Source: Acidimicrobiia bacterium
GTDB lineage: Bacteria; Actinomycetota; Acidimicrobiia; IMCC26256; PALSA-555
Reading direction: 5' to 3'
Assembly: GCA_035763745.1 (NCBI GenBank)
Contig: DASUAO010000054.1
Coordinates: 5,373-69,372, forward strand
Length of the DNA stretch: 64,000 nucleotides
Below, in pieces: positions 49,873-64,000 of this stretch (position 1 is its first letter; each line of letters opens with the position of its first letter). The position numbers and the translations under genes were made by a program. The notes beneath the pieces are model-generated. The model was given only the letters and a program-made list of their open reading frames with translations. It ran no database searches and was not told the DNA's origin.

Positions 49873-51105
49873 TCATCGGGCCGCCAGGAACGCGTCGGCG
49901 GTCGCGCAGACGTAGTCGACGTCGTCGTCGTCCATCGCGTGGTTCGACGGGAGCACGAGTCCCTGTTCCATCACCCGGTCGGCGTTGGGGAGCCCCTCGC
50001 CGGCCACCCGGTGGGTGATGTCCTTGAACCCCGGTTGGCGGAGGGCGTTGCCGGTCCACACCATCCGGGTGTCGACACCGTTGCGCTCCATGTGTTGCTG
50101 GAAGTCAGCCCGCCGCACGCCGCTCTCGGGCCGGACGAGCACGGGGAAGAGGTGCCACGCGGTGTCGAGGCCCGCGAGGGTGCGGGGGAGTGTGAACACG
50201 TCGGGGTGGGTCGCGAAGTGGGCTCGGAGGCGGTCGTGGTTGTGCTGGCGCCGGGCCAGGTTGTCGGGAAGCTTCCGCAGCTGCACGAGCCCGAACGCCG
50301 CGCTCACCTCGGAAGGCTCGAAGTTCCAGCCGACCTCGTCGAAGATGAAGAGGTTGTCGTACTCGAGGCCGTCGACGTCGGAGAAGAAGCGGGTGTCGAC
50401 ACCGCGCCGGGAACCGAACAGCTGGGGCTCTGACCGACGGCCCCAGCGGCGGAGCAGGAGGCAGCGATCGAGGAGGTCGTCGTCGTCGAGCAGGACCATG
50501 CCGCCGGTGCCCATCGCCGTGATGATGTGCGACAGCGCGAAGCTGGTGACGCTGATGTCGGAGCGGGTTCCGGTCGGCGTGCCGTGGAGGGTCGAGCCGA
50601 GGGCATCGCACGAGTCCTCCACGACGGCGAGGCCGTGCGCATCGGCGATCCCACGGATGACGTCCCAGTCGGGCGCGTTGCCGATCAGGTTGGGTGCGAG
50701 GATCGCCTTGGTCCGCGGTCCGATGGCGGACTCGATCTGGTCCACGTCGAGGTTGAACGTGTCGGGCTCGACGTCCACGAACACCGGCACGAGGCCGGCG
50801 CGGACCATCGGCGCCAGGTCGGTCGAGAAGGTCACCGGCGAGGTGATGATCTCGTCGCCCGGCTCGAGCGCGAGGAGCTCCACCGCGAGGTAGAGGGCGG
50901 ACGAGCCGGAGTTGCACATCACGCCCCGCCGCTTGCCGAAGAGCTCGGCAACCTGGGACTCGAACGCGCGCACGTTGCGCCCGATCCGCAGGGCGGTTGC
51001 GCCACCACGCAACACCTCGACGACGGCGTCGATCTCCTCCTCGTCGTGGACGCTGCCGGCGTACTCGATGCGCCGGGCGGGAACGGTGGGGGTCGGGTCG
51101 GTCAC
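49873..51105 (-). CDS. DegT/DnrJ/EryC1/StrS family PLP enzyme (RfbH-like sugar aminotransferase/dehydrase)
   Basis: GTG at 51105. RIEYAGSVHDEEEIDAVVEVL and NSGSSALYLA, with the fold-type I sugar aminotransferase pattern. Confidence 0.7.
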   Translation of the reverse strand: MTDPTPTVPARRIEYAGSVHDEEEIDAVVEVLRGGATALRIGRNVRAFESQVAELFGKRRGVMCNSGSSALYLAVELLALEPGDEIITSPVTFSTDLAPMVRAGLVPVFVDVEPDTFNLDVDQIESAIGPRTKAILAPNLIGNAPDWDVIRGIADAHGLAVVEDSCDALGSTLHGTPTGTRSDISVTSFALSHIITAMGTGGMVLLDDDDLLDRCLLLRRWGRRSEPQLFGSRRGVDTRFFSDVDGLEYDNLFIFDEVGWNFEPSEVSAAFGLVQLRKLPDNLARRQHNHDRLRAHFATHPDVFTLPRTLAGLDTAWHLFPVLVRPESGVRRADFQQHMERNGVDTRMVWTGNALRQPGFKDITHRVAGEGLPNADRVMEQGLVLPSNHAMDDDDVDYVCATADAFLAAR

Positions 51106-51293
51106 GCCGGACACCGTAGGTCGGCCAGACTGGGCCCGTGGAGGAGACCGCCGCCGACTTGCTCGAGCTCCAGACCCTGGTCGACGAGAGCCACGCGAGG
51201 GCCGGAGCGCACCTGCGGAGCGCTCGCGGACGGTCCGCCCGCCCGGGATCCGTACGCACCGACCGCGCCAGGACGCGAGGAAGGGGAGCACGA

Positions 51294-51806
51294 ATGAGCC
51301 CAATGACGCCCGACGCGAACGAGCTCGCCGAGCTCGAGGCCCGCCGCGCGGAGCTGCGCGCCCGGCATCTCCTCCCGCGCGACGAGCGGGCCGAGAGCGC
51401 CGCCAGGGGCGTGCACCACGTGGCGCTACTGTGCGCCGACGTCGAGCGGACCATCGACTTCTACCAGGGCCTGCTCGAGTTCCCGCTCACGGACCTCTTC
51501 GAGAACCGTGACTACCCGGGTTCGACGCACTTCTTCTTCGACATCGGCAACGGGAACGGGCTGGCGTTCTTCGACTTCCCGGGGCTCGACCTCGGTCCCT
51601 ACGCCGAGGTGCTGGGCGGTCTGCATCATCTGGCCCTCTCGGTCCCGCCCCATCGATGGGCGCAACTGCGGGCCAAGCTCGACGCTGCCGGTGTCCCCGT
51701 GCAGAGCATCAGCGGGTCGTCGCTGTACTTCTCCGACCCGGACGGCGTGCGGCTCGAGCTCATCAGCGATCCGCTCGGCGAGATGTACGGATCGCCGGTT
51801 CTGTGA
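51294..51806 (+). CDS. VOC (glyoxalase/bleomycin resistance/dioxygenase) family protein
   Basis: HHVALLCADVERTIDFYQGLLEF and LHHLALSV. AAGGGGAG lies upstream. Confidence 0.75.
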   Translation: MSPMTPDANELAELEARRAELRARHLLPRDERAESAARGVHHVALLCADVERTIDFYQGLLEFPLTDLFENRDYPGSTHFFFDIGNGNGLAFFDFPGLDLGPYAEVLGGLHHLALSVPPHRWAQLRAKLDAAGVPVQSISGSSLYFSDPDGVRLELISDPLGEMYGSPVL

Positions 51807-51862
51807 GTGCCGGTCCTGTGAGCCGCCCCCAGGATGAGGAGGCCCTGGCTGAGAGCCGGATC

Positions 51863-52765
51863 ATGCGCCTGGTCGTGCTTGCCTTCGTATGCCTCGCGCT
51901 CGTGGCGGTGTTGTACGTCATCGCCGTCCACACGTCGCAGGGGCAGAGGATCGACGACGCTGCGGTCGACGGCCGCACGCTTCGCCCGTCCGTGCTGCAG
52001 GCGACGGACCGGGTGCTCAACACGATCAGCGTCGCGTCGCTCGCGCTCGGCGGGTTGGCGGTGATGCTCGTCGCCCTGGTGCGGGAGCGTCTGCACCTCG
52101 CGCTCGCGGCGGGGGTCGTGATCGTGGGAGCGAACGTCACCACGCAGATCCTCAAGACAGGGATCCTGGACCGGCCGGACCTCGTCGGTCCGACGGATCC
52201 GATCGGCGTCATGAACAGCTTCCCCAGCGGGCACTCGACGGTGGCGATGTCGCTCGCAGTCGCCTTGGTGCTCGTCGTCCCGACGGCTGCGCGAGTGCTC
52301 GCCGCCGGCTGGGGCATCGTCTACGCAACGCTCGTGGGCGCGGGCACCGTCACGGCGGGATGGCACCGGCCGAGCGATGTGGTGGCTGCGTACCTGATCG
52401 TCATGGCCTGGGCCGGGATCTCGGTCGCAGTGTTGATCAGTCGGGAGGGCGCGGTGCCGGATCCGGGCTCCCGGTCCCGGTTCGCGGCGCGTGCCCCGTC
52501 GGCGTCGCCGTTCCTCGTCGGAACGGGCGTCGGTGCGCTCGTGGGCGCGCTCGCCGGGGTCGCGGTGACGCTCGTCGCGACCCGCCAGAGCGATCTGGAT
52601 GCGGTGCGTCTGAGCGCGGCGTACGCGGCGTCGATCGTGACGATCGCAGCCTGCGCGCTCGTGCTGATGGTCGTCCTGATGTGGATCCTGCGGGGCGTGG
52701 CACTGGATCAGCCCACCCACGTCAGCCGAGCAGCACCCCGAGGAACAGCGCAGCCAGCGCGCTGA
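51863..52765 (+). CDS. PAP2 superfamily phosphatase, membrane protein
   Basis: SFPSGHSTVAMS and GWHRPSDVV motifs, with multiple TM segments. Confidence 0.75.
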   Translation: MRLVVLAFVCLALVAVLYVIAVHTSQGQRIDDAAVDGRTLRPSVLQATDRVLNTISVASLALGGLAVMLVALVRERLHLALAAGVVIVGANVTTQILKTGILDRPDLVGPTDPIGVMNSFPSGHSTVAMSLAVALVLVVPTAARVLAAGWGIVYATLVGAGTVTAGWHRPSDVVAAYLIVMAWAGISVAVLISREGAVPDPGSRSRFAARAPSASPFLVGTGVGALVGALAGVAVTLVATRQSDLDAVRLSAAYAASIVTIAACALVLMVVLMWILRGVALDQPTHVSRAAPRGTAQPAR

Positions 52766-53120
52766 TCCCGCTCAGCGCCCCGAAGACCGCGAGCCACGTC
52801 TTGGTTCGCGCGATCGAGTGGAGGAACGCGGTGACTCCGGAGATCGCGACGACGGTGATCTTGATCATCACGGTCCGGCCGTAGCTGCTCGAGAAGTCGG
52901 GGTCGACGGCGAGGATGTTCCAGATCCCGGTGATCACCAGCACGCCGTAGGCGGGCCACGCGATGCGGTTGAAGCGTCGGGCCACGGTACGTGGGGCGTC
53001 GGGGCCGAGCGCGCGCAGCCCCGGGACGAGACCGGCCAGGGTCAGCTGGCCCCCGACCCAGACCGTGGCGGCCACGACGTGGAGGAAGACTCGAACGGTC
53101 GCCCAGGTGGTCGGGAGCAC
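52722..53120 (-). CDS. Integral membrane protein, function unknown (4 TM)
   Basis: 132-aa hydrophobic ORF with high third-position GC. Its convergent overlap with the PAP2 gene 3' end is 44 nt. Confidence 0.6.
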   Translation of the reverse strand: MLPTTWATVRVFLHVVAATVWVGGQLTLAGLVPGLRALGPDAPRTVARRFNRIAWPAYGVLVITGIWNILAVDPDFSSSYGRTVMIKITVVAISGVTAFLHSIARTKTWLAVFGALSGISALAALFLGVLLG

Positions 53121-53158
53121 GGGCAGACACGGTAGATGGGTCCGGTAGGGTCGGACGA

Positions 53159-53878
53159 ATGGACGGTGAGGCGACCCCTGAGCGTGTGCTCATCATCACT
53201 GCGCACCCCGACGACGTCGACTTCGGCGCCGCCGGGAGTGTCGCCACGTGGACCGACGCCGGGATCGACGTCACCTACTGCATCGTCACCGACGGCGACG
53301 CGGGCGGCTTCGACCGCGCCGTCGCCCGCCACGTGATGGCCGAGACCCGCCGCGCCGAGCAGACGGCCGCGGCGAAGACGGTCGGCGTGACCGACCTGGT
53401 GTTCCTCGGCTACCCCGACGGCCGCCTCGAGGCCACCCTCGACCTACGACGCGACATCTCGCGCGTCATCCGCCAGGTGCGCCCCGACCGGGTGGTGACC
53501 CAGTCGCCCCAGCGCAACTTCCAGCGCATCTACGCGAGCCACCCCGACCACCTGGCGGCCGGGGAAGCGGCGTTGTGCGCCGTGTACCCGGACGCTCGCA
53601 ACCCGTTCGCCCACGTCGAGCTGCTGGAGGACGAGGGGCTCGAGCCGTGGTCGGCTCCCGAGGTGTGGCTGATGGCCGATCCCAACCCCGACCGGTTCGT
53701 CGACATCACCGACGTCGTGGATCGCAAGCTCGACGCGCTGCGCTGCCACGTGAGCCAGCACCCCGATCCCGACGCCCTCGACGGCATGATCCGCGGGTGG
53801 AGCACGATGGTCGGCGAGCTCGCCGGCTTCCCGGAGGGACACCTCGCCGAGGGCTACCTCTGCGTCCACACCGCCTGA
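53159..53878 (+). CDS. PIG-L / LmbE family deacetylase
   Basis: VLIITAHPDDVDFGAAG and HPDH motifs. Confidence 0.8.
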   Translation: MDGEATPERVLIITAHPDDVDFGAAGSVATWTDAGIDVTYCIVTDGDAGGFDRAVARHVMAETRRAEQTAAAKTVGVTDLVFLGYPDGRLEATLDLRRDISRVIRQVRPDRVVTQSPQRNFQRIYASHPDHLAAGEAALCAVYPDARNPFAHVELLEDEGLEPWSAPEVWLMADPNPDRFVDITDVVDRKLDALRCHVSQHPDPDALDGMIRGWSTMVGELAGFPEGHLAEGYLCVHTA

Positions 53879-53919
53879 CGCCGCGGCGCGATGGTCGAGA
53901 ACCCGAGCAACCACGGTCC

Positions 53920-53962
53920 TGCGTCTCTCACCCCGCCATAGGCGGGTGAGAGACGCATCAAG
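53920..53962. repeat. Hairpin repeat element, copy A
   Basis: TGCGTCTCTCACCCCGCC-ATA-GGCGGGTGAGAGACGCATCAAG, a 16-bp stem with one bulged C. It lies between the convergent PIG-L and ADH genes. Confidence 0.9.
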
Positions 53963-53972
53963 AGCTGCGGGG

Positions 53973-55049
53973 TCAGGCGATGACGCTGCGGATGACCTCG
54001 CCGGCCTCCATGGCGCGGAAGCCCTCGTTGATCTCGTCCAGCGTGATCGTGCGGCTCACCATGTCGCCGACGTCGAGGCGGCCCGTCTCGATGAGCCCGA
54101 TGAGCCGGGGGAAGTCCCGGCGCACCTGGGCCGAGCCGTACACGCACCCGAGCAGGCGCTTCTCCTGGAGGACGAGCGGGAACGTCGGGATCGACACGGA
54201 CTGGTCGGAGCGGGGGACACCCACGGCGATCGTCGTGCCGCCGGCGCGGGTCGCCAGGAACGCCTGCGTGATGAGGTCGGTGTTCCCGATCACCTCGAAC
54301 ACGTAGTCGGCGCCTCGTCCGCCGGTGAGCCCCATCACCTGACCGGCGAGGTCGCCGTCGGCCGGGTCGATCACGTCTGTCGCCCCGAGCTTGAGTGCCG
54401 TGTCTCGCTTGAGCGCCACCGTGTCGACGGCCACGATCCGGGCGGCACCCGCGATGCGGGCACCCTGGATCACGGCCTGGCCGACGCCGCCGCAGCCGAT
54501 CACGACCACGAACGAGCCCGGCTTCACCTCCGCGGTGTTGAGCGCGGCGCCCACGCCGGTCGTCACGCCGCAGCCGATCAGCGCGAGCTGGTCGTCGGGG
54601 AGGTCGGTCTCGACCTTCACCACCGACATCTCGTCGACGATCATCTGCTCGGCGAAGGTGCCGAGCCCCGTCATCGCGGGGAGCATCGTGCCGTCGCCAC
54701 GGGTCGCCCGCGGGTTCATCATCACCGTGTAGGTGTTCTCGCAGAGGTTCGACTGGTCGTTGAGACAGAACCAGCAGATCCCGCAGGCCGGGATGAACGA
54801 GCCGATGACCCGGTCGCCGACCTGCACCCGGGAGACCTCGGGGCCGACGTGCTCGACGATGCCTGCGCCCTCGTGGCCGAGGATGGCGGGAGGCGGCATG
54901 GGCAGCGAGCCGTCCATCACCGAGAGGTCGGAGTGGCACAGGCCGCTCGCAGTCACCCGCACGACCACGTCACGGGGGCCGGGGTCGGTGGGCGTGACGT
55001 CCTCGATGGAGAGGGGGCCGTTCAGCTCGGTGAAGACGGCGGCGCGCAT
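53973..55049 (-). CDS. Zinc-dependent alcohol dehydrogenase family protein
   Basis: GLCHSDLSV, GHEGAGIVEHVG and GCGGVGQAV. Confidence 0.85.
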   Translation of the reverse strand: MRAAVFTELNGPLSIEDVTPTDPGPRDVVVRVTASGLCHSDLSVMDGSLPMPPPAILGHEGAGIVEHVGPEVSRVQVGDRVIGSFIPACGICWFCLNDQSNLCENTYTVMMNPRATRGDGTMLPAMTGLGTFAEQMIVDEMSVVKVETDLPDDQLALIGCGVTTGVGAALNTAEVKPGSFVVVIGCGGVGQAVIQGARIAGAARIVAVDTVALKRDTALKLGATDVIDPADGDLAGQVMGLTGGRGADYVFEVIGNTDLITQAFLATRAGGTTIAVGVPRSDQSVSIPTFPLVLQEKRLLGCVYGSAQVRRDFPRLIGLIETGRLDVGDMVSRTITLDEINEGFRAMEAGEVIRSVIA

Positions 55050-55122
55050 GCTGAGTCCTTTGCGGGAGACGGTGGGAGCGGACGTTCAGGAGTCCGGGGA
55101 GGACGCTACCGCGAGCGCGGCC

Positions 55123-56022
55123 TCAGTGACGAGGGCGCCAGGGGTGCACGGCGAGGCCCGGCGTGGGCATGCCCTCCCAGGCGACGAGCGTCCCCGGGAC
55201 GCCGTCGGTGGCGAAGAGGGTGCGCCCGTCGAGGCCGCCGAAGCAGCAGTTCGTCGTGACGCCGGTGCCCGGCAGGGCGAGGAACTCCACCTCGGTGCCG
55301 TCGGGGTCGAGGACCCGGACGCCGTGGTCGGCCGTGTTCGCCGCGTAGATCCGGCCGTCGGCATCGAGGCAGATCCCGTCGCCCGACGAGGCCCCGAGCC
55401 GTTTGGTGACCCACTCGCGCCCTCCGCTCCCGTCGGCTGCCATCCGCACGAGCCCCTGGGCCTCGACCACGACGAGCGTGCCGCCCGGCTCCAGGGCGAT
55501 CCCGTTGCAGTAGTGGAACCCGTCGGCGACCACCGACGTCGTGCCGTCGGGGTCCATGCGATGCACGGTCCCCACCGGGTCGGCCGGGGGCGGGAAGTGC
55601 GGCGGGTCGGTGAACCACATGACCCCGTCGTCACGCACCACCAGGTCGTTCGGGGCGAGGAAGCCGTCGTCGGCGAGGTACTCGGCCGAGCCGTCCGGGT
55701 ACACGCGCTGGATGCCCGGGGTGACGGGACGGTAGGGCGGTGGCGGGTCGAACATCCCGGGCGCCCGGGCGGCGAAGTCGATCCCGCCGTTCTGGGTGAC
55801 GAGGAACCCCCCGTCGGTCACCGGCCACGCGGCGTTCGCCCCGCCGCCGACATCGGCCACCCGTGTGACGGTCCCCGTCGCGAGGTCGATCCGTTCGAGC
55901 GCACCGTCGGCGACCGACGTGCAGACGATCGATCCCGCCTCGACCGTCCCGTGCGCGGGAGGACACCACACCGGGCCCTCCGGGAAGTGGATCCCGGTCG
56001 CGACGACTTCGGCGTCAGGCAC
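55123..56022 (-). CDS. SMP-30/gluconolactonase/LRE family protein
   Basis: 299-aa beta-propeller-like sequence with FPEGPVW and repeated PNDLVV / GDGICLD patterns. Confidence 0.7.
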   Translation of the reverse strand: MPDAEVVATGIHFPEGPVWCPPAHGTVEAGSIVCTSVADGALERIDLATGTVTRVADVGGGANAAWPVTDGGFLVTQNGGIDFAARAPGMFDPPPPYRPVTPGIQRVYPDGSAEYLADDGFLAPNDLVVRDDGVMWFTDPPHFPPPADPVGTVHRMDPDGTTSVVADGFHYCNGIALEPGGTLVVVEAQGLVRMAADGSGGREWVTKRLGASSGDGICLDADGRIYAANTADHGVRVLDPDGTEVEFLALPGTGVTTNCCFGGLDGRTLFATDGVPGTLVAWEGMPTPGLAVHPWRPRH

Positions 56023-56043
56023 GGTGCACGCGGTCGACGCGGT

Positions 56044-57093
56044 TCACGCGTCGTAGCCGGGCCGGCCAGCGGCTTCCCACTGCTGATAGAAGTCGAAGAA
56101 GGCCTGGCCGAACGGGTCCTCGCCACGCACCGGCATCGAGCCGCGGTGGATGGTCCAGTCCTCCGGAGCGAGCGCCATCGCGCGTCCGAGCGCCTGCTCG
56201 GCGGCATCTGGGGCGTCGGCGCGCAGCAGGTGCATCGCGAGCCGCCGTTCCGCGCGCGCGGCCTGGAGGTCGGCGCTCGGCGGCGCGAGCCGGGCGCGCA
56301 GCTCGTCCTTGCTCATCGGTGCGACCCCGTCGTGCACCCAGGCCCGCAGCGCATCGTGGTGCACGGAGGAGTCGAGCTGGGTGAAGTCCTTGAATCGGTC
56401 GTCGGCGGGGGCGATCGACGGAGGGCGCACGACCACGCCGTCCTCGTCGATCCAGACCGTGGTGGGGACGTTGACGATGCCGTAGCGCTCGGCGACGACG
56501 TGGTCGCGGTCCACGAGCACCGGATACGTCAGGGGGCTCGTGGGCTCGTCGACCGCCCACTGGCGGATCGCGTCGACGTCCTCGTCGAGGGCGACCGCGA
56601 GGATGACGAGCCCCTCACCGAGCTCGGTGGCCAGCTCCTGCCAGACCGGCAGGTCCCATCGGCAACCTCACCACGAGGACCAGGCGAGCAGCATCCGCTT
56701 GCGCCCCGCGTAGTCGTCGAGTGAGATCTCGTGGCCGTCGAGGTCGGGCAGCGTGAACGCCGGTGCCCGGTGGTCGACGAGGGCAGGGTCGAGCGCCTCG
56801 GTGGACTCGCCGAGCACCGCGACCGCAGGGTCGTTCGACATCGCGAACGGTCGCCGCAGTGCTTCGGCGACGCCCCGCAACGAGACGGCTCCGTCGACGT
56901 GGAGCTCGTCAGGGTGGCGGATCTGGACGCAGACGTTGCCCCGGCACAGACCTTCGGGGCGCAGCGTCCAGCCGATGGCGGGCTCGAGCATCGCGGGATC
57001 GAGGAGGACCGTGTCGGTCTCGACGTCGCCGAGGACGTCGACGACGCGGTCGCCGTCGACGACGGTCACGGTCCCGGGAGCCACGAGCCGCAC
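56044..57093 (-). CDS. Thioredoxin-fold (TlpA/ResA/redoxin-like) protein with in-frame TGA at the CxxC position: candidate selenoprotein (W-U-G-C)
   Basis: ORFs 56044..56520 and 56668..57774 share one frame, and the whole stretch between them is open. The only interruption is the TGA at 56670-56668, in the context LLAWSSW-TGA-GCRWDLPVW. High-GC3 coding continues on both sides. The GTG start at 57093 is tentative. Confidence 0.6.
56626..56667 (-). other. Candidate bacterial SECIS hairpin
   Basis: The mRNA reads UGA GGUUGCCGAUGGGA CCUGCC GGUCU GGCAGG AGCUGGCCACC. The 6-bp upper stem closes a GGUCU loop at +24..+28 from the U of UGA. A lower stem, GGU..GCCG pairing with UGGC..ACC, is possible. 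Confidence 0.5.
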
Positions 57094-57108
57094 GCTACTC
57101 CGCCACCC

Positions 57109-57151
57109 CTTGATGCGCCTCTCACCCGCCCTTGGCGGGGTGGGAGACGCA
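57109..57151. repeat. Hairpin repeat element, copy B (inverted orientation)
   Basis: CTTGATGCGCCTCTCACCCGCC-CTT-GGCGGGGTGGGAGACGCA. Its reverse complement aligns with copy A along the full length. Confidence 0.9.
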
Positions 57152-57282
57152 GGGCCATGGGTGCAGGGGGGACGAGGGTCCAGAGGGCGGACCGCGCGTG
57201 ACGACGCACTAGGTTCGCCGCCGATGCAGGCCGGGCGTGTCCACGAGCTCTCGCCGACCGACGACGGGTCCGAGGTCTGACC

Positions 57283-57915
57283 GTGTCCCACAGCCCTCCC
57301 GGTCCCCCGCTCGTCGAGATGCGGGTCCTGTTGGTCCGCCACGGGCAGTCGACGTGGAACGCGGAGGGCCGGTGGCAGGGGTCGGCCGACCCGCCGCTCT
57401 CGGTGCTGGGGGAGCACCAGGCCCGGGCCGCCGGCGCGGCCGTGGAGCACCTCGGCGTGCAGCGTGTCGTCACGTCGGACCTGGAGCGCGCCCGACGCAC
57501 CGGTGAGCTCCTCGGCCCGGACGGGATCCTGATCCAGGTCGACGCGGCGCTCCGTGAGCGCCACGCTGGGGAGTGGGAGGGCCTGACCCGGGCGGAGATC
57601 GAGGCGGGCTACCCCGGCTTCCTCGCCGAGCACCGGAGCCCGCCCGGCTTCGAGGACGACGAGTCGCTGCTCGCGCGGGTGCTCCCCGCGTTGGATGCCC
57701 TGCTCGCCCACCCGGCCGCCGGCGCCACCCTCGTCGTCACCCATGGCGGCGTCATCCGCACGCTCGAGCGACATCTCGGTGCACCGGAGGCCCCCGTCCC
57801 CAACCTGGGGGGTCGGTGGCTGCGGCGCACCGCGAACGCACCGCTCGTCCTCGGGGAGCGCGAGGTGCTCATCGATCCCGACGTCGTCGCGCTCACCGTC
57901 CCCGACCAGCTGTAG
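57283..57915 (+). CDS. Histidine phosphatase family protein
   Basis: VLLVRHGQSTWNAEGRWQG (RHG motif) and VVTHGGVIR. An alternative ATG start lies at 57319. Confidence 0.8.
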   Translation: MSHSPPGPPLVEMRVLLVRHGQSTWNAEGRWQGSADPPLSVLGEHQARAAGAAVEHLGVQRVVTSDLERARRTGELLGPDGILIQVDAALRERHAGEWEGLTRAEIEAGYPGFLAEHRSPPGFEDDESLLARVLPALDALLAHPAAGATLVVTHGGVIRTLERHLGAPEAPVPNLGGRWLRRTANAPLVLGEREVLIDPDVVALTVPDQL

Positions 57916-57934
57916 ACGCCCGAGATCTCGGACG

Positions 57935-57977
57935 TGCGTTGCTCACCCCGCCATGGGCAGGTGAGCAACGCATCATC
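57935..57977. repeat. Hairpin repeat element, copy C
   Basis: TGCGTTGCTCACCCCGCC-ATG-GGCAGGTGAGCAACGCATCATC. Paired substitutions relative to copy A keep the stem intact. Confidence 0.9.
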
Positions 57978-58006
57978 GGGCCCCGGGCGGTGCGGCGACG
58001 CGCGTC

Positions 58007-60295
58007 TTGTACGATGGTCGGTCCCCCACGCAGCATCGGAGCCGCGCGTTGTCCGTCCGGGATCCCGAGATCGTCGCCGAACAGGCCTACGTCGACGCGG
58101 CCTACGAGCAGCTCGACGTCATGCGCACCGCCGCCCGGCGGATCGCCGCCGGGTACTCCGAGGTCGGTCGCGGCGGCACCCACCAGGCCCGGCTCGAGCG
58201 CGACGTCGCCGAGGACGCCACCCGCCGCCGGCTCGCCGCCCTCGACGTGGGGGACCTCCCGCTCTGCTTCGGCCGCCTCGACCGCACCGACGACGCCACC
58301 CACTACGTCGGGCGGATCTCGGTCACCGGCCCTGAGGCGACGCCCCTCGTCGTCGACTGGCGAGCTCCCGTCGCCGAGCCGTTCTACCGGGCGACGGCGG
58401 TCGAGCCCATGGGCGTGGTGCGCCGCCGCCACTTCCTGACCCGCCCGAACGAGGGCCGCACCATCGTCGGACTCGACGACGAGGTCTTCGACGCCGATCG
58501 CGCAGACGCCGCCGGGCTCTCGGTGATGGGCGAGGGCGCGCTCCTGTCGGCGCTGGAGCGGGCCCGCACCGGACGCATGGGCGACATCGTCGCGACGATC
58601 CAGGCGGAGCAGGACGAAGCCATCCGGGCCCCGTTGCCCGGGGTCCTGATCGTGACGGGGGGCGCCGGCACCGGGAAGACCGCCGTCGCGCTGCACCGGG
58701 CCGCGTACCTCCTCTACACCCACCGGAGCCGCCTCGGGTCCCAGGGCGTGCTCCTCATCGGCCCGAACTCGATCTTCCTGCGCTACATCGACCAGGTGCT
58801 CCCGTCGCTCGGGGAGAACGAGGTCCGCCTCGCGACCCCCGCCAGCCTGAAGCCCCGGTACCGCGTGGGTGCGACCGACACGCCCGACGCGGCCCGCGTG
58901 AAGGGCGACCTACGGATGGTCGACGTCATCGCCGGGGCGCTGCGCGACCGGGAGCACCCGCTCCCACGCGACGCGGTGATGGTCCTCGACGACACCGTGC
59001 TCCGGCTCAGTCGCGGCGCCACGGCCCGGATCATCGACCGCGTGCGTGCGCAGCGTGGACTGCACAACGAGAAGCGTCCGAGGGTGGTCCGCGCGGTCGT
59101 CGAGCACCTCCGCTTCCAGTACCGCACCGCGCTGGGCGCAACCGCGCCCGACGACCGCGACTGGGAGCGCGAGCTGGACTCCCGCATCCGGCGCCTCCCC
59201 GAGGTCCGGGCCGCGCTCGAGCGGATGTGGCCGGTGCTGACGGGTGCCGACCTCGTCCACGACCTGTTCTCGTTCCGGGGGTTGGTGCGTTCGGCGTCCC
59301 GTGACCTCCTCGCCGACGACGAGCAGGAGCAGCTGGTGCGACCTCGGTCGCCGAGCCTCCGCGAGGTCGCGTGGACCGAGGCCGACCTCGCGCTCGTCGA
59401 CGAAGCCGACACCCTCGTCGGCCCACCCGAGTCGGCGAAGCCCCGTCGGTCGCGTGCGCGCCGGTCGTCGTCCGACGAGACCGCTGATCGCGTCGTCGCC
59501 AACCTCGGCGTGGGCGGGTTCATGACCGCGGGCGAGGTCGCACGCCGCTACGCCGCGGCCCCGTCGAGCAACGGAGGTGGCGACGAGCCCGGCACGTACG
59601 GTCACGTCCTGGTCGACGAGGCCCAGGACCTCTCACCGATGCAGTGGCGCATGCTCTCGCGCCGGTGCCCGTCGGGGTCGATGACGGTCGTCGGCGATTT
59701 CGGCCAGGCGAGCAAGGCCGGCTCCGCGCGCGGCTGGGACGACGTCGCGAGCATCATCGACGCGCCCCAGGCGCCCCGGATGGTCAACCTCAGCGTCAAC
59801 TACCGCACGCCGGCGGAGATCATGGACGTCGCCCATCGCGTGCTCGCGGCTGCCGCTCCCGGGATCGAGCCGACACGGGCGGTGCGCCACACCGGAGTGC
59901 ACCCGCGGTTCGAGTCGGTTCCGGCCGACCTCCTCGTCGACCGGGTGGCCGACGCAGCCCGGGATGCGGCTGCGGCCGAAGGGACGAGCGCCGTGGTCGC
60001 CCCTGCGGGTCTCCACGAGGCGATCGTCGATGCGCTCGCCGACATCGGCGCGGTCGCGGGTTCAGCCGACGCACTCGACGCGCCGGTCGCCGTGCTGGGT
60101 GCTTCGGAGGCCAAGGGCCTGGAGTTCGACACTGTCGTCGTGGTCGAACCTGCGGACCTCGTGCCCGCCGACGTGAACGGTCTGCGGTTGCTCTATGTCG
60201 TGTTGACCCGGGCGACGAAGTCGCTGGTGGTCGTGCACTCGGAGCCGCTCCCCGAGTCGTTGGCGATCTCGAGCGTCGTAGGCTCGCCGTCATGA
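58007..60295 (+). CDS. helD: HelD-type (helicase IV-like) UvrD-family ATPase, RNA polymerase-associated
   Basis: N-terminal coiled region (EQAYVDAAYEQLDVMR), Walker A GGAGTGKTAVAL, VLVDEAQDLSPMQW, and C-terminal KGLEFDTVVVVEP and LYVVLTRATKSLVV. The start (TTG 58007 or 58049) is uncertain. Confidence 0.75.
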   Translation: MYDGRSPTQHRSRALSVRDPEIVAEQAYVDAAYEQLDVMRTAARRIAAGYSEVGRGGTHQARLERDVAEDATRRRLAALDVGDLPLCFGRLDRTDDATHYVGRISVTGPEATPLVVDWRAPVAEPFYRATAVEPMGVVRRRHFLTRPNEGRTIVGLDDEVFDADRADAAGLSVMGEGALLSALERARTGRMGDIVATIQAEQDEAIRAPLPGVLIVTGGAGTGKTAVALHRAAYLLYTHRSRLGSQGVLLIGPNSIFLRYIDQVLPSLGENEVRLATPASLKPRYRVGATDTPDAARVKGDLRMVDVIAGALRDREHPLPRDAVMVLDDTVLRLSRGATARIIDRVRAQRGLHNEKRPRVVRAVVEHLRFQYRTALGATAPDDRDWERELDSRIRRLPEVRAALERMWPVLTGADLVHDLFSFRGLVRSASRDLLADDEQEQLVRPRSPSLREVAWTEADLALVDEADTLVGPPESAKPRRSRARRSSSDETADRVVANLGVGGFMTAGEVARRYAAAPSSNGGGDEPGTYGHVLVDEAQDLSPMQWRMLSRRCPSGSMTVVGDFGQASKAGSARGWDDVASIIDAPQAPRMVNLSVNYRTPAEIMDVAHRVLAAAAPGIEPTRAVRHTGVHPRFESVPADLLVDRVADAARDAAAAEGTSAVVAPAGLHEAIVDALADIGAVAGSADALDAPVAVLGASEAKGLEFDTVVVVEPADLVPADVNGLRLLYVVLTRATKSLVVVHSEPLPESLAISSVVGSPS

Positions 60296-62121
60296 CGACC
60301 TCCGCCACGTCGACTTCCCCTGCTCCCTCCGATCCCGACCTCACGGCGGCCGACGTCGCGTGGGACATCGAGCCGCTCGTCGACGGGAAGGGCGCCGACG
60401 GGGTGGATGCGTTGCTCGACGAGGCCGCGAGGCGTGTGGAAGCGGTGGCGGACTCCGCGCGCGGTCGGATCGCCGACCTCGACGCCGAAGCACTCGCGCA
60501 GCTCATGCGCGAGGTCGGTCACATCAGCGAGCTCATCGGCCGGGCCGGCTCGTACGCCGGCCTCTGGTTCTCCACCGACACGACCGACGCGCAGCGGGGG
60601 GCGCTGCTCGCCCGGACCGAGGAGCGGGCGACGGCGATCTCCAACGAGCTCCTGTTCGTCGAGCTCGAGTGGGCCGCGCTCGACGACGACCATGTCGCCA
60701 CCGTCCTCGCCGACGAGCAGCTCGAGTTCTGCCGGCACCACCTGGCGTCGGCCCGTCGGTACCGGTCGCACCTGCTCTCCGAGCCGGAGGAGCGGATCCT
60801 CGCGGAGAAGGCCGTCACCGGCAGCAGCGCCTGGGCCCGCCTCTTCAGCGAGCTCACGTCCGCGATCGACGTCGCCGTCGGTGGGGAGACGGTGAGCCTG
60901 GAGGAGGGGCTGTCGCGGCTCCAGTCACCCGACCGCGATCTCCGCCGCGATGCGGCCGAGGCGGTCACCGACGCACTCGAACCCGGGCTGCGGACGCGTG
61001 CCTACGTCTTCAACACCTTGCTCGCCGACAAGTCCAGCGACGACCGGCTCCGGGAGTACGACGGATGGCTCGCCAGCCGCAACCTCGACAACGAGGCGAG
61101 CGACGAGTCGGTGCAGGCGCTCGTCGACGCCGTGGTCGCCCGCTACGACATCCCGCAGCGGTGGTACCGGCTCAAGGCCGCGCTCCTCGGGGTCGAGCAG
61201 ATCGCCGACTACGACCGCATGGCGTCGGTCGCCGACGTCGAGGAGACGTTCGCCTGGTCCGACGCCAGCGCCCTCGTGCTCGACGCGTACGGCTCGTTCT
61301 CACCGGAGCTCGCCGACATCGCCCGCCGGTTCATCGACGAGGGGTGGATCGACGCGCCGATGCGTCCCGGGAAGCGCCCCGGTGCGTTCTGCGCGTACAC
61401 GGTGCCGTCGCTGCACCCCTACGTCCTGTTGAACTGGACGGCCCGCCGCCGCGACGTGCTCACGCTCGCCCACGAGCTCGGCCACGGCATGCACGCGTAC
61501 CTGGCCCGCGACCAAGGGGTCTTCCACCAGTCGACACCGCTCACCCTGGCGGAGACCGCGTCGGTGTTCGGCGAGACGGTCACGTTCGGGCGTCTCCTGG
61601 AGGCCACCACCGACCCCGCTGCCCGGCTCGCGCTCCTGGCCGAGAGCCTGGAGGGCCAGATCGCCACGGTGTTCCGGCAGATCGCGATGAACCGCTTCGA
61701 GGACGCGGTGCACACCGACCGCCGTGAGCAGGGTGAGCTGTCCGTCGACCGGTTCGCCGAGCTCTGGATCGAGTCGCAGAACGCCATGCTCGGCGACGCC
61801 GTCCACCTCACCGAGGGCTACCGCACGTGGTGGTCCTACATCCCGCACTTCATCGCGACACCCGGGTACGTCTACGCGTACGCCTACGGGCAGCTGCTCG
61901 CGCTCTCGGTGTACCGCCGGTACGAGGAGCAGGGGGCCGACTTCGTCCCCTCCTACCTCGAGCTGCTGGCTCGTGGGGGTTCGGCGTCGCCCGAGGAGCT
62001 CGGCGCCGTCGTCGGCGTCGACCTCGGGGATCCCGGGTTCTGGACTGGCGGGCTCACCATCGTCGACGAGCAGCTCGCTGCTGCCGAGCAGGCCGCGCGC
62101 GACGCCGGCCGCCTCACCTGA
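60292..62121 (+). CDS. pepF: M3 family oligoendopeptidase (PepF-like)
   Basis: The ATG overlaps the helD stop (ATGA). Zinc motif HELGHGMH. Confidence 0.85.
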   Translation: MTTSATSTSPAPSDPDLTAADVAWDIEPLVDGKGADGVDALLDEAARRVEAVADSARGRIADLDAEALAQLMREVGHISELIGRAGSYAGLWFSTDTTDAQRGALLARTEERATAISNELLFVELEWAALDDDHVATVLADEQLEFCRHHLASARRYRSHLLSEPEERILAEKAVTGSSAWARLFSELTSAIDVAVGGETVSLEEGLSRLQSPDRDLRRDAAEAVTDALEPGLRTRAYVFNTLLADKSSDDRLREYDGWLASRNLDNEASDESVQALVDAVVARYDIPQRWYRLKAALLGVEQIADYDRMASVADVEETFAWSDASALVLDAYGSFSPELADIARRFIDEGWIDAPMRPGKRPGAFCAYTVPSLHPYVLLNWTARRRDVLTLAHELGHGMHAYLARDQGVFHQSTPLTLAETASVFGETVTFGRLLEATTDPAARLALLAESLEGQIATVFRQIAMNRFEDAVHTDRREQGELSVDRFAELWIESQNAMLGDAVHLTEGYRTWWSYIPHFIATPGYVYAYAYGQLLALSVYRRYEEQGADFVPSYLELLARGGSASPEELGAVVGVDLGDPGFWTGGLTIVDEQLAAAEQAARDAGRLT

Positions 62122-62134
62122 GCGACCAAGTCGA

Positions 62135-63823
62135 TCAGATCCGTGCCAGCTCGTCCTCGAGCTGGTCGAGGCCCATCGACCCGAGCTCGAGCGCGCGACG
62201 GTGGAACGACTTGAGGTCGAAGGAGTCGCCGACGCGGGCCCGAGCGGCGTCCCGCGCGCGGAGCCACACCCGCTCACCGACCTTGTAGCTGATGGCCTGT
62301 CCGGGGAGCCCGAGGTAGCGGTCGACCTCGCTCGCCATGAAGTCCTCGGGGAAGTGGCTGCGACCGATCACGAACGGCAGCGCGAGCTCGGGGGTCCAGG
62401 TCTCGCCGCCGTGCTCGGGCTCCGAGTGCGGGATCGGGAGCGAGAGGTGCAACCCGATGTCGACGACGACGCGCACGGCTCGCATCGCCTGGGCCCGGAG
62501 CATCCCGAGCTCGTACGCCGGGTCCTCGAGGAAGCCGAGCTCGCCCATGAGCCGCTCGGCGTAGAGCGCCCACCCTTCGCCGTGGCCCGAGTTCCAGCCG
62601 ATCGTCCGTTGGAAGCGGTTGAGGCGGTCGCGCTGCGTGCGCACGGTCGCGACCTGGAGGTGATGTCCCGGGACGGCCTCGTGGTAGCAGATCGAGACCT
62701 CGCCCCAGAGCGGGAACGTCGTCCGGCCGAGCGTCGGGTACCACGTGCGACCCGGGCGGCTCAGGTCCTCCGACGGGCCGGTGTAGTACATCGCGGCGGC
62801 ACCGCCCGGCGGTGCGATCATGGCCTCGCAGCGGCGGATCTCGGGGGGGATGTCGAAGTGCACGCCGTCGAGCGCGTCGGTCGTGCGGTCGATCAGGTCC
62901 TGGAGCCAGCCGAGGAGCGCGTCCTCTCCCTCGACGGTCCGGGACGAGTCGAGCTCGAGGTGCTCGATGACCGCGCCCACCGGCTCGCCGGGCACGATCC
63001 GTTCGCCCACCGCGGCCATCGCCGCCTCGATCCGGTACAGCTCCTCCCACCCCCACTCGTACGTCTCCTCGAGGTCGAGCACCGTCCCCGTGAACGCGCG
63101 GGCCCACCGCCGGTACCGCTCGGGGCCGACGCCATCGGGCGCGTCGGTACCGGGGAGGTACTCGTCGACGAGGAACCGCCCGAGGGCCACGTAGGCGTCG
63201 GTCGCGCGTGCGGCCGCCTGCTCGAGGTCCGACCGGAGGGCCGGTTCATCGACGCCGGCCCCGGCCATCTCCTCGACGAGCCCCGCGAAGTACGGGATGG
63301 TCCCCGGTGTCGATCCGGCAAACGTTTCCGCCTGGCGGGCACACGCGAAGGCCTGGCGACCGGCGGCGGTGACCCCCCGTCGCATCCCCTCGCGCAAGGA
63401 GGCGACGAGCCCGTCGAGGGCCGCGGGGACGGCGCCCACCCGGGCGGCGATCTGCGCCCAGTCCGCCGCGGTGGCGCGCTCCATGAGGTCGAAGCACATG
63501 ACGATGCTCGTGACCGGGCTGGCGATGACCCGAAGGGGTCGGAGGTCCTCGTCGGCGTCGGCGAGATCGAGCGCGGTGTCGAGGTGGCGCTCGAGCGCGA
63601 CGGCGCCGATCCGCTCGGCGTCGGTCTGTGGGTGCGCGGTCGCCAGCTCGGCACGGGTCGCGCGGTCGTGCGTGATCCGCGCCGCGATCCCGTCCGGTGA
63701 GTAGTCGGTGAGCTCGGTCTCGTGGCCCGGTACCCCTTCGAACGTTGCGGCCACGGGATCGAGCGCGGCGACGGTGTCGACGTAGCGGTCAGCGAGGCCG
63801 GCGACGGTCATGGGAGTCGACAT
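62135..63823 (-). CDS. DUF885 family protein
   Basis: Contains HEAVPGHHLQ and GEGWALYAE, characteristic of DUF885. The ATG at 63823 was chosen as the start. Confidence 0.75.
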   Translation of the reverse strand: MSTPMTVAGLADRYVDTVAALDPVAATFEGVPGHETELTDYSPDGIAARITHDRATRAELATAHPQTDAERIGAVALERHLDTALDLADADEDLRPLRVIASPVTSIVMCFDLMERATAADWAQIAARVGAVPAALDGLVASLREGMRRGVTAAGRQAFACARQAETFAGSTPGTIPYFAGLVEEMAGAGVDEPALRSDLEQAAARATDAYVALGRFLVDEYLPGTDAPDGVGPERYRRWARAFTGTVLDLEETYEWGWEELYRIEAAMAAVGERIVPGEPVGAVIEHLELDSSRTVEGEDALLGWLQDLIDRTTDALDGVHFDIPPEIRRCEAMIAPPGGAAAMYYTGPSEDLSRPGRTWYPTLGRTTFPLWGEVSICYHEAVPGHHLQVATVRTQRDRLNRFQRTIGWNSGHGEGWALYAERLMGELGFLEDPAYELGMLRAQAMRAVRVVVDIGLHLSLPIPHSEPEHGGETWTPELALPFVIGRSHFPEDFMASEVDRYLGLPGQAISYKVGERVWLRARDAARARVGDSFDLKSFHRRALELGSMGLDQLEDELARI

Positions 63824-63905
63824 GGCGACGCAACGTAGCCGCATCCGACGCGAGACGGGCCAGCCCGGATGGGCGCCGCCAACGGCGGCGTGCCACGATC
63901 GCGAC

Positions 63906-64000
63906 ATGACCGAGCTCGCGGACGCCCATGTGCTCGTCACGGGCGGGTCGGCCGGGATCGGCCTGGCGACGGCGCGTCTCGCGCTCGATCGCGGTGCTCG
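63906..64000 (+). CDS. SDR family oxidoreductase, N-terminal fragment (continues beyond the window)
   Basis: MTELADAHVLVTGGSAGIGLATARLALDRGA. Confidence 0.6.
   Translation, partial: MTELADAHVLVTGGSAGIGLATARLALDRGA

Follow-up and report, generated by a model that had tools for sequence, protein, structure and literature searches.

Bacterial SECIS elements have been captured in a general bSECIS model by Zhang & Gladyshev, which, as summarised in PMC13188914, comprises a loop of 3-9 nt on a stem of 4-16 bp, G in one of the first two loop positions with G or U usually next to it, a distance of 16-37 nt from the UGA to the loop, and a minimum free energy (MFE) of -7.5 or lower. The SECIS of E. 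coli fdhF has been experimentally defined as a minimal element of 17 nt, and a bulged U17 on the 5' side of its upper stem is required for SelB binding in E. coli (PMC8659212). The SECIS of Moorella thermoacetica fdhA is the one used in SelB-RNA crystal structures (PDB 1WSU), as cited in PMC4605307. Among selenoproteins, a 'Prx-like (UGC-containing)' family has been described (Zhang & Gladyshev 2008, PMC2398784). Our analysis of a 64-kb stretch of Acidimicrobiia DNA (the window) identified a hairpin that is very probably a bacterial SECIS element, located within the coding sequence of a thioredoxin-fold oxidoreductase. The element is real, the selenoprotein family to which it belongs has been described before, and the known working of bacterial SECIS elements is unchanged by the finding. 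The gene and the parts of the hairpin, numbered with the U of the UGA as +1, are as follows.

56044..57093, minus strand: predicted selenoprotein gene of about 349 codons, with the predicted Sec at codon 142
56670-56668, minus strand: in-frame UGA, the proposed selenocysteine codon, TGC or TGT in Cys homologues
56654..56667, minus strand: spacer from the UGA to the base of the upper stem, +4..+17, 14 nt, GGUUGCCGAUGGGA, encoding G-C-R-W-D
56648..56653, minus strand: 5' arm of the upper stem, CCUGCC, +18..+23
56643..56647, minus strand: apical loop, GGUCU, +24..+28
56637..56642, minus strand: 3' arm of the upper stem, GGCAGG, +29..+34
56626..56636, minus strand: 3' side of the lower stem proposed in a first-pass annotation of this DNA, AGCUGGCCACC, outside the conserved element
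56046-56044, minus strand: stop codon TGA of the gene

When the TGA is read through, translation of the minus strand gives a single uninterrupted frame (...AWSSW-UGA-GCRWDLPVWQELAT...), which aligns over 99-100% of its length with Cys-containing homologues of 345-355 aa at 55-66% identity. The gene probably starts at the GTG at 57093, judging from the Shine-Dalgarno-like sequence GGCGGAG 6 nt upstream; the GTG at 57084 is a second possible start. The protein carries its active site, W-S-S-W-U-G-C (W-A-S-W-U-G-C in roughly half of the Sec homologues), in a redoxin/AhpC-TSA domain (Pfam AhpC-TSA, PF00578, E = 2.5e-19), which is preceded by an N-terminal domain and followed by a helical C-terminal one. 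In an alignment with 2yp6, a solved thioredoxin-family protein, the UGA codon falls on the N-terminal Cys of the CGPC site, relative to which the proline is deleted in the window protein and CxxC becomes UxC. UGA is an ordinary stop codon in the window, since its high-GC3 ORFs mostly end in TGA. A scan of the window and genome loci L001-L080 for other genes with an in-frame TGA and coding signal on both sides returned this family only, the remaining in-frame-TGA cases being neighbouring genes that share a frame by chance, such as the PNPase/M16 peptidase pair at 5194-5196. In public records the closest relative, P0023, is a truncated fragment of 202 aa named 'TlpA disulfide reductase family protein', and gene callers list relatives of the window protein as fragments of about 200 aa, which begin at codons within the hairpin region, as in P0023 ('MPVWQ...').

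The UGA, the CCUGCC/GGCAGG stem and the GGUCU loop exist on the minus strand as the first-pass annotation had claimed (UGA 56670-56668, hairpin 56653-56637). The whole upper stem-loop is 17 nt (+18..+34, window 56653-56637), forms a perfect 6-bp helix with a 5-nt loop, and codes for D-L-P-V-W-Q. The loop G and U lie at +25 and +26 from the U of the UGA, as had been stated, and the distance from UGA to loop is 20 nt, within the general rule of 16-37 nt that the annotation had invoked. G25 and U26 are presumed to be the SelB contact, while a closing pair probably links G24 to C27, which would leave U28 unpaired. The expectation that the structure would be more stable than shuffled controls failed over its full length: RNAfold folded the exact 42 nt at -19.6 kcal/mol (GGU/ACC, GCC/GGC with GG/CU, an internal loop, the 6-bp upper stem and the 5-nt loop), but 27 of 200 shuffles folded equally well (z = -1.14), and longer segments fared similarly (45 nt, z = -1.57; 56 nt, z = -1.38). 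The 17-nt core was the sole segment to stand out, at -10.0 kcal/mol and z = -3.27, with 1 of 200 shuffles as good. As a single sequence, the hairpin over the full 42 nt is thus not beyond chance, and the shuffle-folding test is itself weak in DNA with a GC content of 71%. The surrounding 300 nt hold 14 inverted repeats of at least 6 nt, and a single copy of the motif CTGCCNGKNTGGCAG is found in the 64 kb, where 0 are expected. Bacterial SECIS elements are poorly covered by Rfam, as is also stated in a preprint, and a scan of positions 50000-64000 at E up to 10 returned no SECIS family and chance miRNA and sRNA matches alone. We accept the upper stem-loop as a SECIS element because of the comparison with its relatives, and not because of single-sequence folding.

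Two samples of relatives were compared: a genome sample of 45 TGA-bearing homologues (window included) and 36 homologues with TGC or TGT from species-representative genomes, and an unbiased metagenome sample of 115 TGA-bearing members, retrieved with a search pattern that ended before the stem. The annotation had held that the stem should be conserved in TGA-bearing homologues and not equally present in Cys-bearing ones, and this is what we observed. The full signature combines a loop N-G-[U/G]-N-U, pairing of loop position 1 and a stem of 5 bp or more; 45/45 TGA forms carry it, against 0/36 Cys forms (Fisher p = 8e-24, with phylogeny not corrected for), and the upper stem-loop was kept in 109 of the 115 metagenomic members. 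A stem of at least 5 bp alone was found in 45/45 TGA forms versus 7/36 Cys forms, the other 29 having fewer than 5 bp, and the MFE of the core 27 nt was -11.7 kcal/mol in TGA forms versus -6.4 kcal/mol in Cys forms (Mann-Whitney p = 2e-13). The stem was weakened in the remaining six metagenomic members, through replacement of Leu by Val, Gln or Arg (L103, L163, L164, L098, L138) or an apparent 1-nt deletion (L086). Sec and Cys forms were interspersed on a protein tree computed after masking of the site, with at least 10 Sec/Cys switches by Fitch parsimony. The stem-loop core persists while C-terminal protein identity to the window drops to 27% (median 49%), the spacer length is invariant (0 indels in 142 aligned TGA-bearing sequences), and 160 TGA-bearing sequences conserve both gene halves in frame with an indel-free junction. 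The L-P-x-W-Q peptide encoded by the hairpin is common in Cys forms too. Judged by these sequence comparisons, the upper stem-loop lies far above chance. The family provides a natural experiment, in which the RNA signal stays with UGA and decays with Cys over at least ten switches.

The stem is also kept against codon constraints, as had been suggested from the window alone. Leu +6 is encoded by CUG and Gln +10 by CAG in 45/45 Sec forms, while other Leu codons of the same genes and nearby Leu, Gly, Cys and Arg codons vary; in Cys forms the Leu +6 position is CUG in 14, CUC in 13, AUC in 6, CUU in 2 and UUG in 1. Synonymous positions of the spacer vary freely (GGN with all four bases, TGC/TGT, CGC/CGT/CGA). 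In the genome sample CUGCC on the 5' arm is invariant in 45/45 Sec forms, as is GGCAG on the 3' arm, a near-invariance of the five core pairs that is partly owed to the conserved L-P-x-W-Q peptide. The covariation proposed as a check on the stem was found in the metagenome set, where GGCAA occurs with UUGCC and GGAAG with CUUCC. Across 140 distinct TGA sequences the pair +18:+34 was CG in 83, GC in 18, UA in 10, UG in 2 and unpaired in 27; +19:+33 was CG in 132, UA in 5 and UG in 1; +21:+31 was GC in 139 and UA in 1; and +22:+30 was CG in 135 and UG in 5. Overall 96% of cells were paired and 0 of 500 shuffles matched the covariation score, whereas registers slid by 1 to 3 nt gave 25-63% pairing and far lower scores. 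The loop takes several forms among TGA sequences (GGUCU, CGUGU, CGGGU, AGUUU, AGUCU, AGGUU and others), but all 140 have G at position 2, followed by U or G at position 3. The combination at loop positions 1 and 4 was GC in 64, CG in 56, AU in 11, UA in 1 and other combinations in 8, that is 94% paired with 0 of 500 shuffles equal, and their state changed at least 17 times on the tree. Pairing of positions 1 and 5, as in the published consensus, reached 60%, against 94% for 1:4. The loop G-[U/G] even fixes residue +8 as Val or Gly (codons GUN/GGN). The RNA requirement thus visibly sets both codon choice and one amino acid.

A conserved hairpin could in principle act without SelB, by slowing the ribosome, by favouring near-cognate read-through of the UGA (as Trp or Cys), or by modulating translation or mRNA stability. 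Downstream structures are known stimulators of stop-codon read-through, which lends this reading some weight, as does a search for Sec machinery that came up empty: tblastn with the SelA, SelB and SelD proteins of E. coli gave no selA, selB or selD in the 64 kb or in the flanks of 80 genome loci, and a tRNA search gave no tRNA-Sec in the window or these loci. The invariant loop G2, the U or G at loop position 3 and the fixed 14-nt spacing are, in contrast, predicted by a sequence-specific protein contact, and a roadblock would not need them; moreover the UGA falls exactly on the catalytic Cys of a catalogued selenoprotein family, and selB and a UGA-containing selD are present on contigs of relatives. 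These genes adjoin TGA-bearing family members, one as a SelB-wing_3 fragment (E = 1.8e-16) on contig L150, whose redoxin is 69% identical to that of the window over the C-terminal 207 aa, and the other as a selD on contig L167 whose motif SHGAG-U-ACK contains an in-frame TGA. We consider a role without SelB very improbable. The fdhF-like neighbours in L030, L074, L068, L079, L057, L051 and L084 proved on tblastn with FdhF to be molybdopterin oxidoreductases of the ordinary kind, in which the Sec position is not a UGA.

The lower stem of the first-pass annotation stood only in part. RNAfold of the window's 42 nt reproduces its overall shape, but across 43 distinct TGA-bearing sequences 42% of cells of the lower helix are paired, and RNAalifold retains a 5-bp core alone; the lower stem is confined to the window and its closest relatives and lies outside the conserved element. 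A 5' hairpin over the UGA itself, drawn by RNAalifold, was without covariation support. It is also conceivable that the functional structure is another, overlapping fold, either GACC/GGUC with a UGCC tetraloop and a GCUA/UGGC extension, or an 8-bp CGUGUGGC-AGGA-GCUG(C/U)ACG hairpin. Many individual sequences have one of these as their minimum-free-energy fold, RNAfold preferring the GACC/GGUC fold in many of them, and the AGGA-loop hairpin also satisfies the generic bSECIS rules; yet GACC/GGUC pairing is impossible with CGUGU, CGGGU or AGUUU loops, the AGGA hairpin is limited to one clade, and CUGCC/GGCAG is the sole register with covariation support, so that we regard either alternative as extremely unlikely. 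That the hairpin is a by-product of GC-rich coding for DLPVWQ, and the TGA a genuine stop codon within a split gene or pseudogene, is barely credible, even with a full 42-nt fold no better than shuffles (z = -1.14), many similar inverted repeats nearby, L-P-x-W-Q common in Cys forms and relatives annotated as fragments of about 200 aa, because the full stem-loop signature tracks the UGA and is absent with Cys, Cys forms encode an identical or almost identical peptide with different codons that break the stem, compensatory third-position synonymous covariation cannot stem from protein selection, both halves are in frame in 160 TGA-bearing sequences with no junction indel, and the annotated fragments start inside the hairpin region (P0023).

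The reading of the hairpin as a SECIS element, which the first-pass annotation had proposed, is therefore supported by comparison with UGA- and Cys-bearing relatives. On this reading SelB would bind the hairpin, selenocysteine would actually be inserted, and the source genome would carry selA, selB, selC and selD. With the UGA (codon 142) in the ribosomal A site, the hairpin 14 nt downstream would stand at the mRNA entrance, and SelB-GTP-Sec-tRNA(Sec) would be brought to the UGA, such that selenocysteine is inserted in place of termination and a U-G-C redox centre results; the ribosome would then melt the hairpin and read D-L-P-V-W-Q. The locus would accordingly be annotated as one selenoprotein of 349 codons, and not as a 141-aa stub followed by a fragment of about 200 aa. 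Sec use in Acidimicrobiia-type lineages is probably under-reported, because relatives are listed as fragments and the NCBIfam model misses this clade.

The window protein shares with the Prx-like (UGC-containing) family the AhpC-TSA/redoxin fold of PF00578, the UGC motif, the W-[AS]-x-W preceding U-G-C and the three-part architecture. Its best NCBIfam match is NF041054, 'ResA-like WAxxUGC motif-containing protein' (E = 4e-63, 213.8 bits, profile positions 8-316 of 354), the motif of which is present as W-S-S-W-U-G-C with Ser for Ala; a literature search for 'WAxxUGC' gave no match among the papers covered. The curated cut-off of NF041054 is 300 bits, and other clades score 218-301, including 300.8 for metagenomic L118. 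Since the 213.8 bits of the window protein fall below that cut-off, its gene belongs to a divergent Acidimicrobiia-type clade of the known family that the model would leave unnamed. The hairpin agrees with the bSECIS model in its 5-nt loop, 6-bp stem, GG, 20 nt between UGA and loop (+4..+23) and -10.0 kcal/mol, in its place within coding sequence directly 3' of a UGA aligned with Cys, and in its base-pair covariation among UGA-bearing orthologues and its loss in Cys-bearing ones. The published pattern N1 G [G|U] N N2 pairs N1 one base further 3' than the 1:4 pairing found here, and the apex of the window type, with G-[U/G] unpaired and an unpaired U on the 3' side, is unlike that pattern. We tentatively propose, as a suggestion on which we are close to evenly divided, that the apex is a closed 'N-GU-N' turn, with a Watson-Crick pair between loop positions 1 and 4, and that this turn is the actual recognition module for SelB. 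If so, G22-G23-U24-C25 of E. coli fdhF would be an instance of this same module, the published consensus would be refined, and bacterial selenoprotein gene finding would gain a much more specific signature. There would also be a direct explanation for residue +8, which is held to Val or Gly in Sec forms and goes back to Ala or Ser once Cys replaces Sec. A literature search did not return the sequence of the M. thermoacetica SECIS RNA. We take the apex of the crystallised fdhA RNA to be ...UUGCC-GGUCU-GGCAA..., nearly identical to the window element, and in the SelB-RNA crystal structure from M. thermoacetica the G and U reportedly swing out of the loop onto SelB's winged-helix domain. The likeness to fdhF noted in the first-pass annotation extends to the GGUC apex and to an approximate distance from the UGA, but not to the bulged U17 or the 11-nt spacer. 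E. coli fdhF (NC_000913.3) reads UUGCA-GGUC-UGCAC and the window CUGCC-GGUC(U)-GGCAG, the apex being closed by a GC-rich stem in both; the spacer is 14 nt here versus 11 nt in fdhF, the essential G and U lie at +25/+26 versus +23/+24, and in place of the 5' bulged U the window hairpin has the unpaired U28 3' of the apex. Both elements are 17 nt long, in both the lower stem is dispensable or not conserved, and the GGUC apex is common to the two.

Reading through the in-frame UGA yields a protein of ~349 residues that stops at 56046-56044 and probably starts at the GTG at 57093, which is preceded by a Shine-Dalgarno-like GGCGGAG. This protein contains an AhpC-TSA/redoxin domain and aligns end to end with Cys-containing proteins of 345-355 amino acids at 55-66% identity. 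In alignments with solved thioredoxin-family proteins, the UGA falls on the nucleophilic, N-terminal Cys of CGPC, with one residue deleted such that CxxC becomes U-G-C. UGA is otherwise the normal stop codon in the window, as most ORFs with coding-type GC3 terminate in TGA. [quoted passage not shown] NF041054 was the top NCBIfam match of the window protein (E = 4e-63), its 213.8 bits falling short of the curated 300-bit cut-off; scores in the window's clade are 214-224 bits, and a metagenomic member from another clade, L118, scores 300.8 bits, exactly at the cut-off. Judging by its sequence, the window gene is a divergent family member missed by current annotation rules. Public protein sets contain closer relatives (70-90% identity) only as ~200-amino-acid fragments starting inside or just past the hairpin that follows the UGA, the product expected when a gene caller takes the UGA for a stop; the closest, P0023 ('MPVWQELATEF...', publicly named 'TlpA disulfide reductase family protein'), begins inside the SECIS. 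Public annotation systematically mis-calls the selenoprotein in the window's clade. In the N-terminal domain of ~100 amino acids (56800-57093, minus strand) the two-Cys motif G-W-x-L-x-P-E-G-L-C-x-G-x-V-C is conserved, and the C-terminal domain has an invariant R-G-x-D-P-F-G motif; neither domain matched a Pfam family, and a partner redox site is one possible role for these motifs.

On the minus strand, the frame reads 5' to 3' ...RKRMLLAWSSW-UGA-GCRWDLPVWQELATE..., with the UGA at 56670-56668. Numbering from the U of UGA as +1, the hairpin is made up as follows.

Elements of the hairpin 3' of the UGA
56653-56648, minus strand (+18..+23): 5' arm CCUGCC, pairing with GGCAGG
56647-56643, minus strand (+24..+28): apical loop GGUCU, enclosed by the two arms
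56642-56637, minus strand (+29..+34): 3' arm GGCAGG, pairing with CCUGCC

The first-pass annotation had drawn a SECIS-like hairpin here from the sequence alone, and RNAfold on the exact 42 nt reproduced the overall drawing (-19.6 kcal/mol), so that the observation is correct; the loop G and U indeed lie at +25/+26. Its suggested comparison of folding energy with shuffles came out against the full 42 nt, 27 of 200 dinucleotide shuffles being as stable (z = -1.14), and longer spans gave z = -1.57 (45 nt) and z = -1.38 (56 nt); only the 17-nt core was unusual (-10.0 kcal/mol, z = -3.27). The window has a G+C content of 71%, and 14 inverted repeats of at least 6 nt lie within 300 nt of the hairpin. 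The motif CTGCCNGKNTGGCAG occurs once in the 64 kb against 0 expected, and an Rfam scan of 50000-64000 gave no credible family match, SECIS or otherwise. Taken singly, the hairpin is hardly beyond chance, and by thermodynamics alone the question stays undecided.

Scanning one genome per species gave 80 loci of the redoxin family, nearly all labelled Acidimicrobiia or uncultured Actinomycetota, with TGA at the homologous codon in 44 and TGC/TGT in 36; the window brings the TGA forms to 45. The record titles of five GC-rich contigs that cluster with Acidimicrobiia (L014, L023, L043, L050, L057) give 'Bifidobacteriaceae bacterium' or 'Bifidobacterium breve' as the source of the MAG, labels that are probably wrong.

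Hairpin features in TGA forms (45) and Cys forms (36)
Core CUGCC-NGNNU-GGCAG: TGA forms, all 45; Cys forms, not kept
Loop types: TGA forms, GGUCU 31, CGUGU 10, CGGGU 4; Cys forms, varied
Stem of at least 5 bp: TGA forms, 45/45; Cys forms, 7/36
MFE of the core 27 nt: TGA forms, -11.7 kcal/mol; Cys forms, -6.4 kcal/mol (p = 2e-13)

In line with the first-pass reading, the stem-loop is kept with UGA and lost with Cys: the full signature of stem, N-G-[U/G]-N-U loop and paired loop position 1 was found in 45/45 TGA forms and 0/36 Cys forms (Fisher p = 8e-24, not corrected for the tree). As Sec and Cys forms are intermixed on the protein tree (UGA/Cys site masked), and parsimony on a second tree gives at least 10 Sec/Cys changes, this association is not a single-clade effect. 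In all 45 Sec forms the Leu codon at +6 (codons counted after the UGA) is CUG and the Gln codon at +10 is CAG. Other Leu codons of the same genes are mixed (at +12, for example, CUG 23, CUC 18, CUU 2, UUG 1), and every synonym is used for the Gly, Cys and Arg codons between UGA and stem. Codon +6 of the Cys forms is likewise mixed (CUG 14, CUC 13, AUC 6, CUU 2, UUG 1). Residue +8 (56644-56646; same column in L001-L080) is always Val (GUC/GUG) or Gly (GGG) in Sec forms, whereas in Cys forms it is mostly Ala or Ser, which suggests that the loop G-[U/G] dictates this amino acid and that the constraint relaxes after Sec-to-Cys replacement.

Metagenome contigs were scanned with the pattern W-x-x-W-UGA-G-C-R-[YW]-[DE], which stops before the stem and so cannot select for the hairpin. 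It recovered 115 family members, with C-terminal halves 27-90% identical to the window protein (median 49%), and in 109 of them a stem of at least 5 bp and the loop signature are kept. This sample contains compensatory changes absent from the invariant genome set: UUGCC/GGCAA in five sequences (Leu UUG with Gln CAA) and CUUCC/GGAAG in one, alongside Gln-to-Lys; CUGUC/GGCAG, with Pro-to-Ser, retains a U-G wobble in six.

Pair states in the alignment of 140 distinct TGA-bearing sequences
+18:+34: CG 83, GC 18, UA 10, UG 2, unpaired 27
+19:+33: CG 132, UA 5, UG 1, other 2
+20:+32: UA 138, other 2
+21:+31: GC 139, UA 1
+22:+30: CG 135, UG 5
+23:+29: CG 140

Overall, 96% of stem cells are paired, with a covariation score reached by 0 of 500 shuffles, and the 14-nt spacer between UGA and stem has 0 indels in 142 sequences. 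Every register slid by 1 to 3 nt lowers pairing to 25-63%. The lower stem of the original drawing (GGU/ACC plus GCCG/UGGC) did not hold up, with only 42% of its cells paired and RNAalifold retaining the core alone. Loop positions 1 and 4 fall on synonymous sites, namely the third base of the Pro codon and that of the Val/Gly codon, and are paired in 94% of the 140 sequences (GC 64, CG 56, AU 11, UA 1, other 8), with at least 17 changes of state on the tree; in Cys forms they are paired just half the time. Since the 1:5 pairing suggested by the published consensus reaches only 60%, the conserved apex would best be written N-G-[U/G]-N', with a predicted N:N' closing pair that may form in free RNA or only on SelB, and with the U that begins the Trp codon left unpaired after it. 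Among the metagenomic TGA-bearing sequences, a few (L098, L138, L103, L163, L164, L086, L093, L195) depart from the pattern through stems weakened by a change of Leu to Gln, Arg or Val, through apparent deletions of 1 nt or through a loop Trp-to-Gly change, which could reflect sequencing error, gene decay or tolerated variation. The CGUGU-loop clade (L006, L008, L009, L012, L020, L022) can also form a clade-specific alternative 8-bp hairpin, CGUGUGGC-AGGA-GCUG(C/U)ACG at +24..+43, which overlaps the conserved stem and satisfies generic bacterial SECIS rules.

The hairpin exists, is conserved specifically with UGA, covaries, keeps a fixed spacing and fits the bacterial consensus, and from these comparisons it is very probably a real SECIS, belonging to an unannotated, divergent gene in a known selenoprotein family. 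SelB-independent read-through of the UGA is unlikely given the sequence-specific loop, and a mere by-product of coding sequence is argued against by covariation at synonymous sites; an alternative fold as the functional structure is unlikely, as other registers lack family-wide support. The standard bacterial mechanism most likely applies to this SECIS. With UGA in the A site, the hairpin would be positioned at the mRNA entrance, where SelB-GTP-Sec-tRNA(Sec) would be tethered to the extruded G25-U26 through the SelB winged-helix domain; Sec would be inserted at the window UGA to form the U-G-C redox centre, and the hairpin would afterwards be unwound and translated by the ribosome. Neither the window nor the flanks of the 80 genome loci contained selA, selB, selD or tRNA-Sec. 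Parts of the machinery are present on two of the metagenome contigs that bear TGA forms of the family. L150, with a redoxin that shares 69% identity with the window's across 207 amino acids (C-terminal half), terminates ~7 kb from that gene in a SelB C-terminal winged-helix fragment (7414-7770, minus strand; PF09107 SelB-wing_3, E = 1.8e-16). L167 carries selD (selenophosphate synthetase; 11432-12454, plus strand) ~8.5 kb from its redoxin gene, with an in-frame TGA (11480-11482) at the catalytic Cys position, SHGAG-U-ACKLSP; the long hairpin after this TGA is no more stable than shuffles (z = 0.03). A 2026 preprint describes another Acidimicrobiia order with complete Sec machinery.

The neighbours of the selenoprotein gene (52991-56022) are an SMP-30/gluconolactonase-like gene, on the same strand and beginning 24 nt past its stop, a zinc alcohol dehydrogenase and a PIG-L family deacetylase, none of them selenium-related. 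Elsewhere in the window, a polynucleotide phosphorylase gene (2659-5196, plus strand) ends in a long low-complexity GGDRDR/RGG-repeat tail, and an M16 peptidase gene follows its TGA in the same frame; read-through there was rejected, these being two ordinary genes, the second of which has an ATG of its own (5233). A tRNA-Cys (GCA) gene is found near the redoxin gene in one section of the family tree, mostly at 1-3 kb and up to ~8.5 kb, beside Cys and Sec forms alike (L027, L029, L036, L037, L039, L040, L045, L046, L049, L051, L058, L061, L065). A distant relative of FdhF, a molybdopterin oxidoreductase, adjoins the redoxin gene in L068, L079, L057, L051 and L084 (upstream, opposite strand) and in L030 and L074; where the locus is of the Sec form, this oxidoreductase shows neither UGA nor a Cys-for-Sec signature at the position of FdhF Sec140.

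The published bacterial SECIS model specifies a loop of 3-9 nt with G within its first two positions and G or U next, an upper stem of 4-16 bp, 16-37 nt from UGA to loop and an MFE of -7.5 kcal/mol or lower (PMC13188914). The window element fits throughout, with a 5-nt loop, GG then U, a 6-bp stem, 20 nt and -10.0 kcal/mol. The minimal functional unit of the E. coli fdhF element is likewise 17 nt, its lower stem being dispensable (PMC8659212). The likeness to fdhF (UGACACGGCCCAUCGGUUGCAGGUCUGCACC, from NC_000913.3) proposed in the first-pass annotation is partial: the GGUC apex is shared and the G/U position is approximately so (+23/+24 in fdhF), but in fdhF U17 bulges out 5' of the apex and the spacer measures 11 nt, in contrast to the perfect 6-bp stem, 14-nt spacer and unpaired U 3' of the apex in the window element. 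The RNA of M. thermoacetica fdhA that was co-crystallised with SelB reportedly has an apex almost identical to that of the window element.
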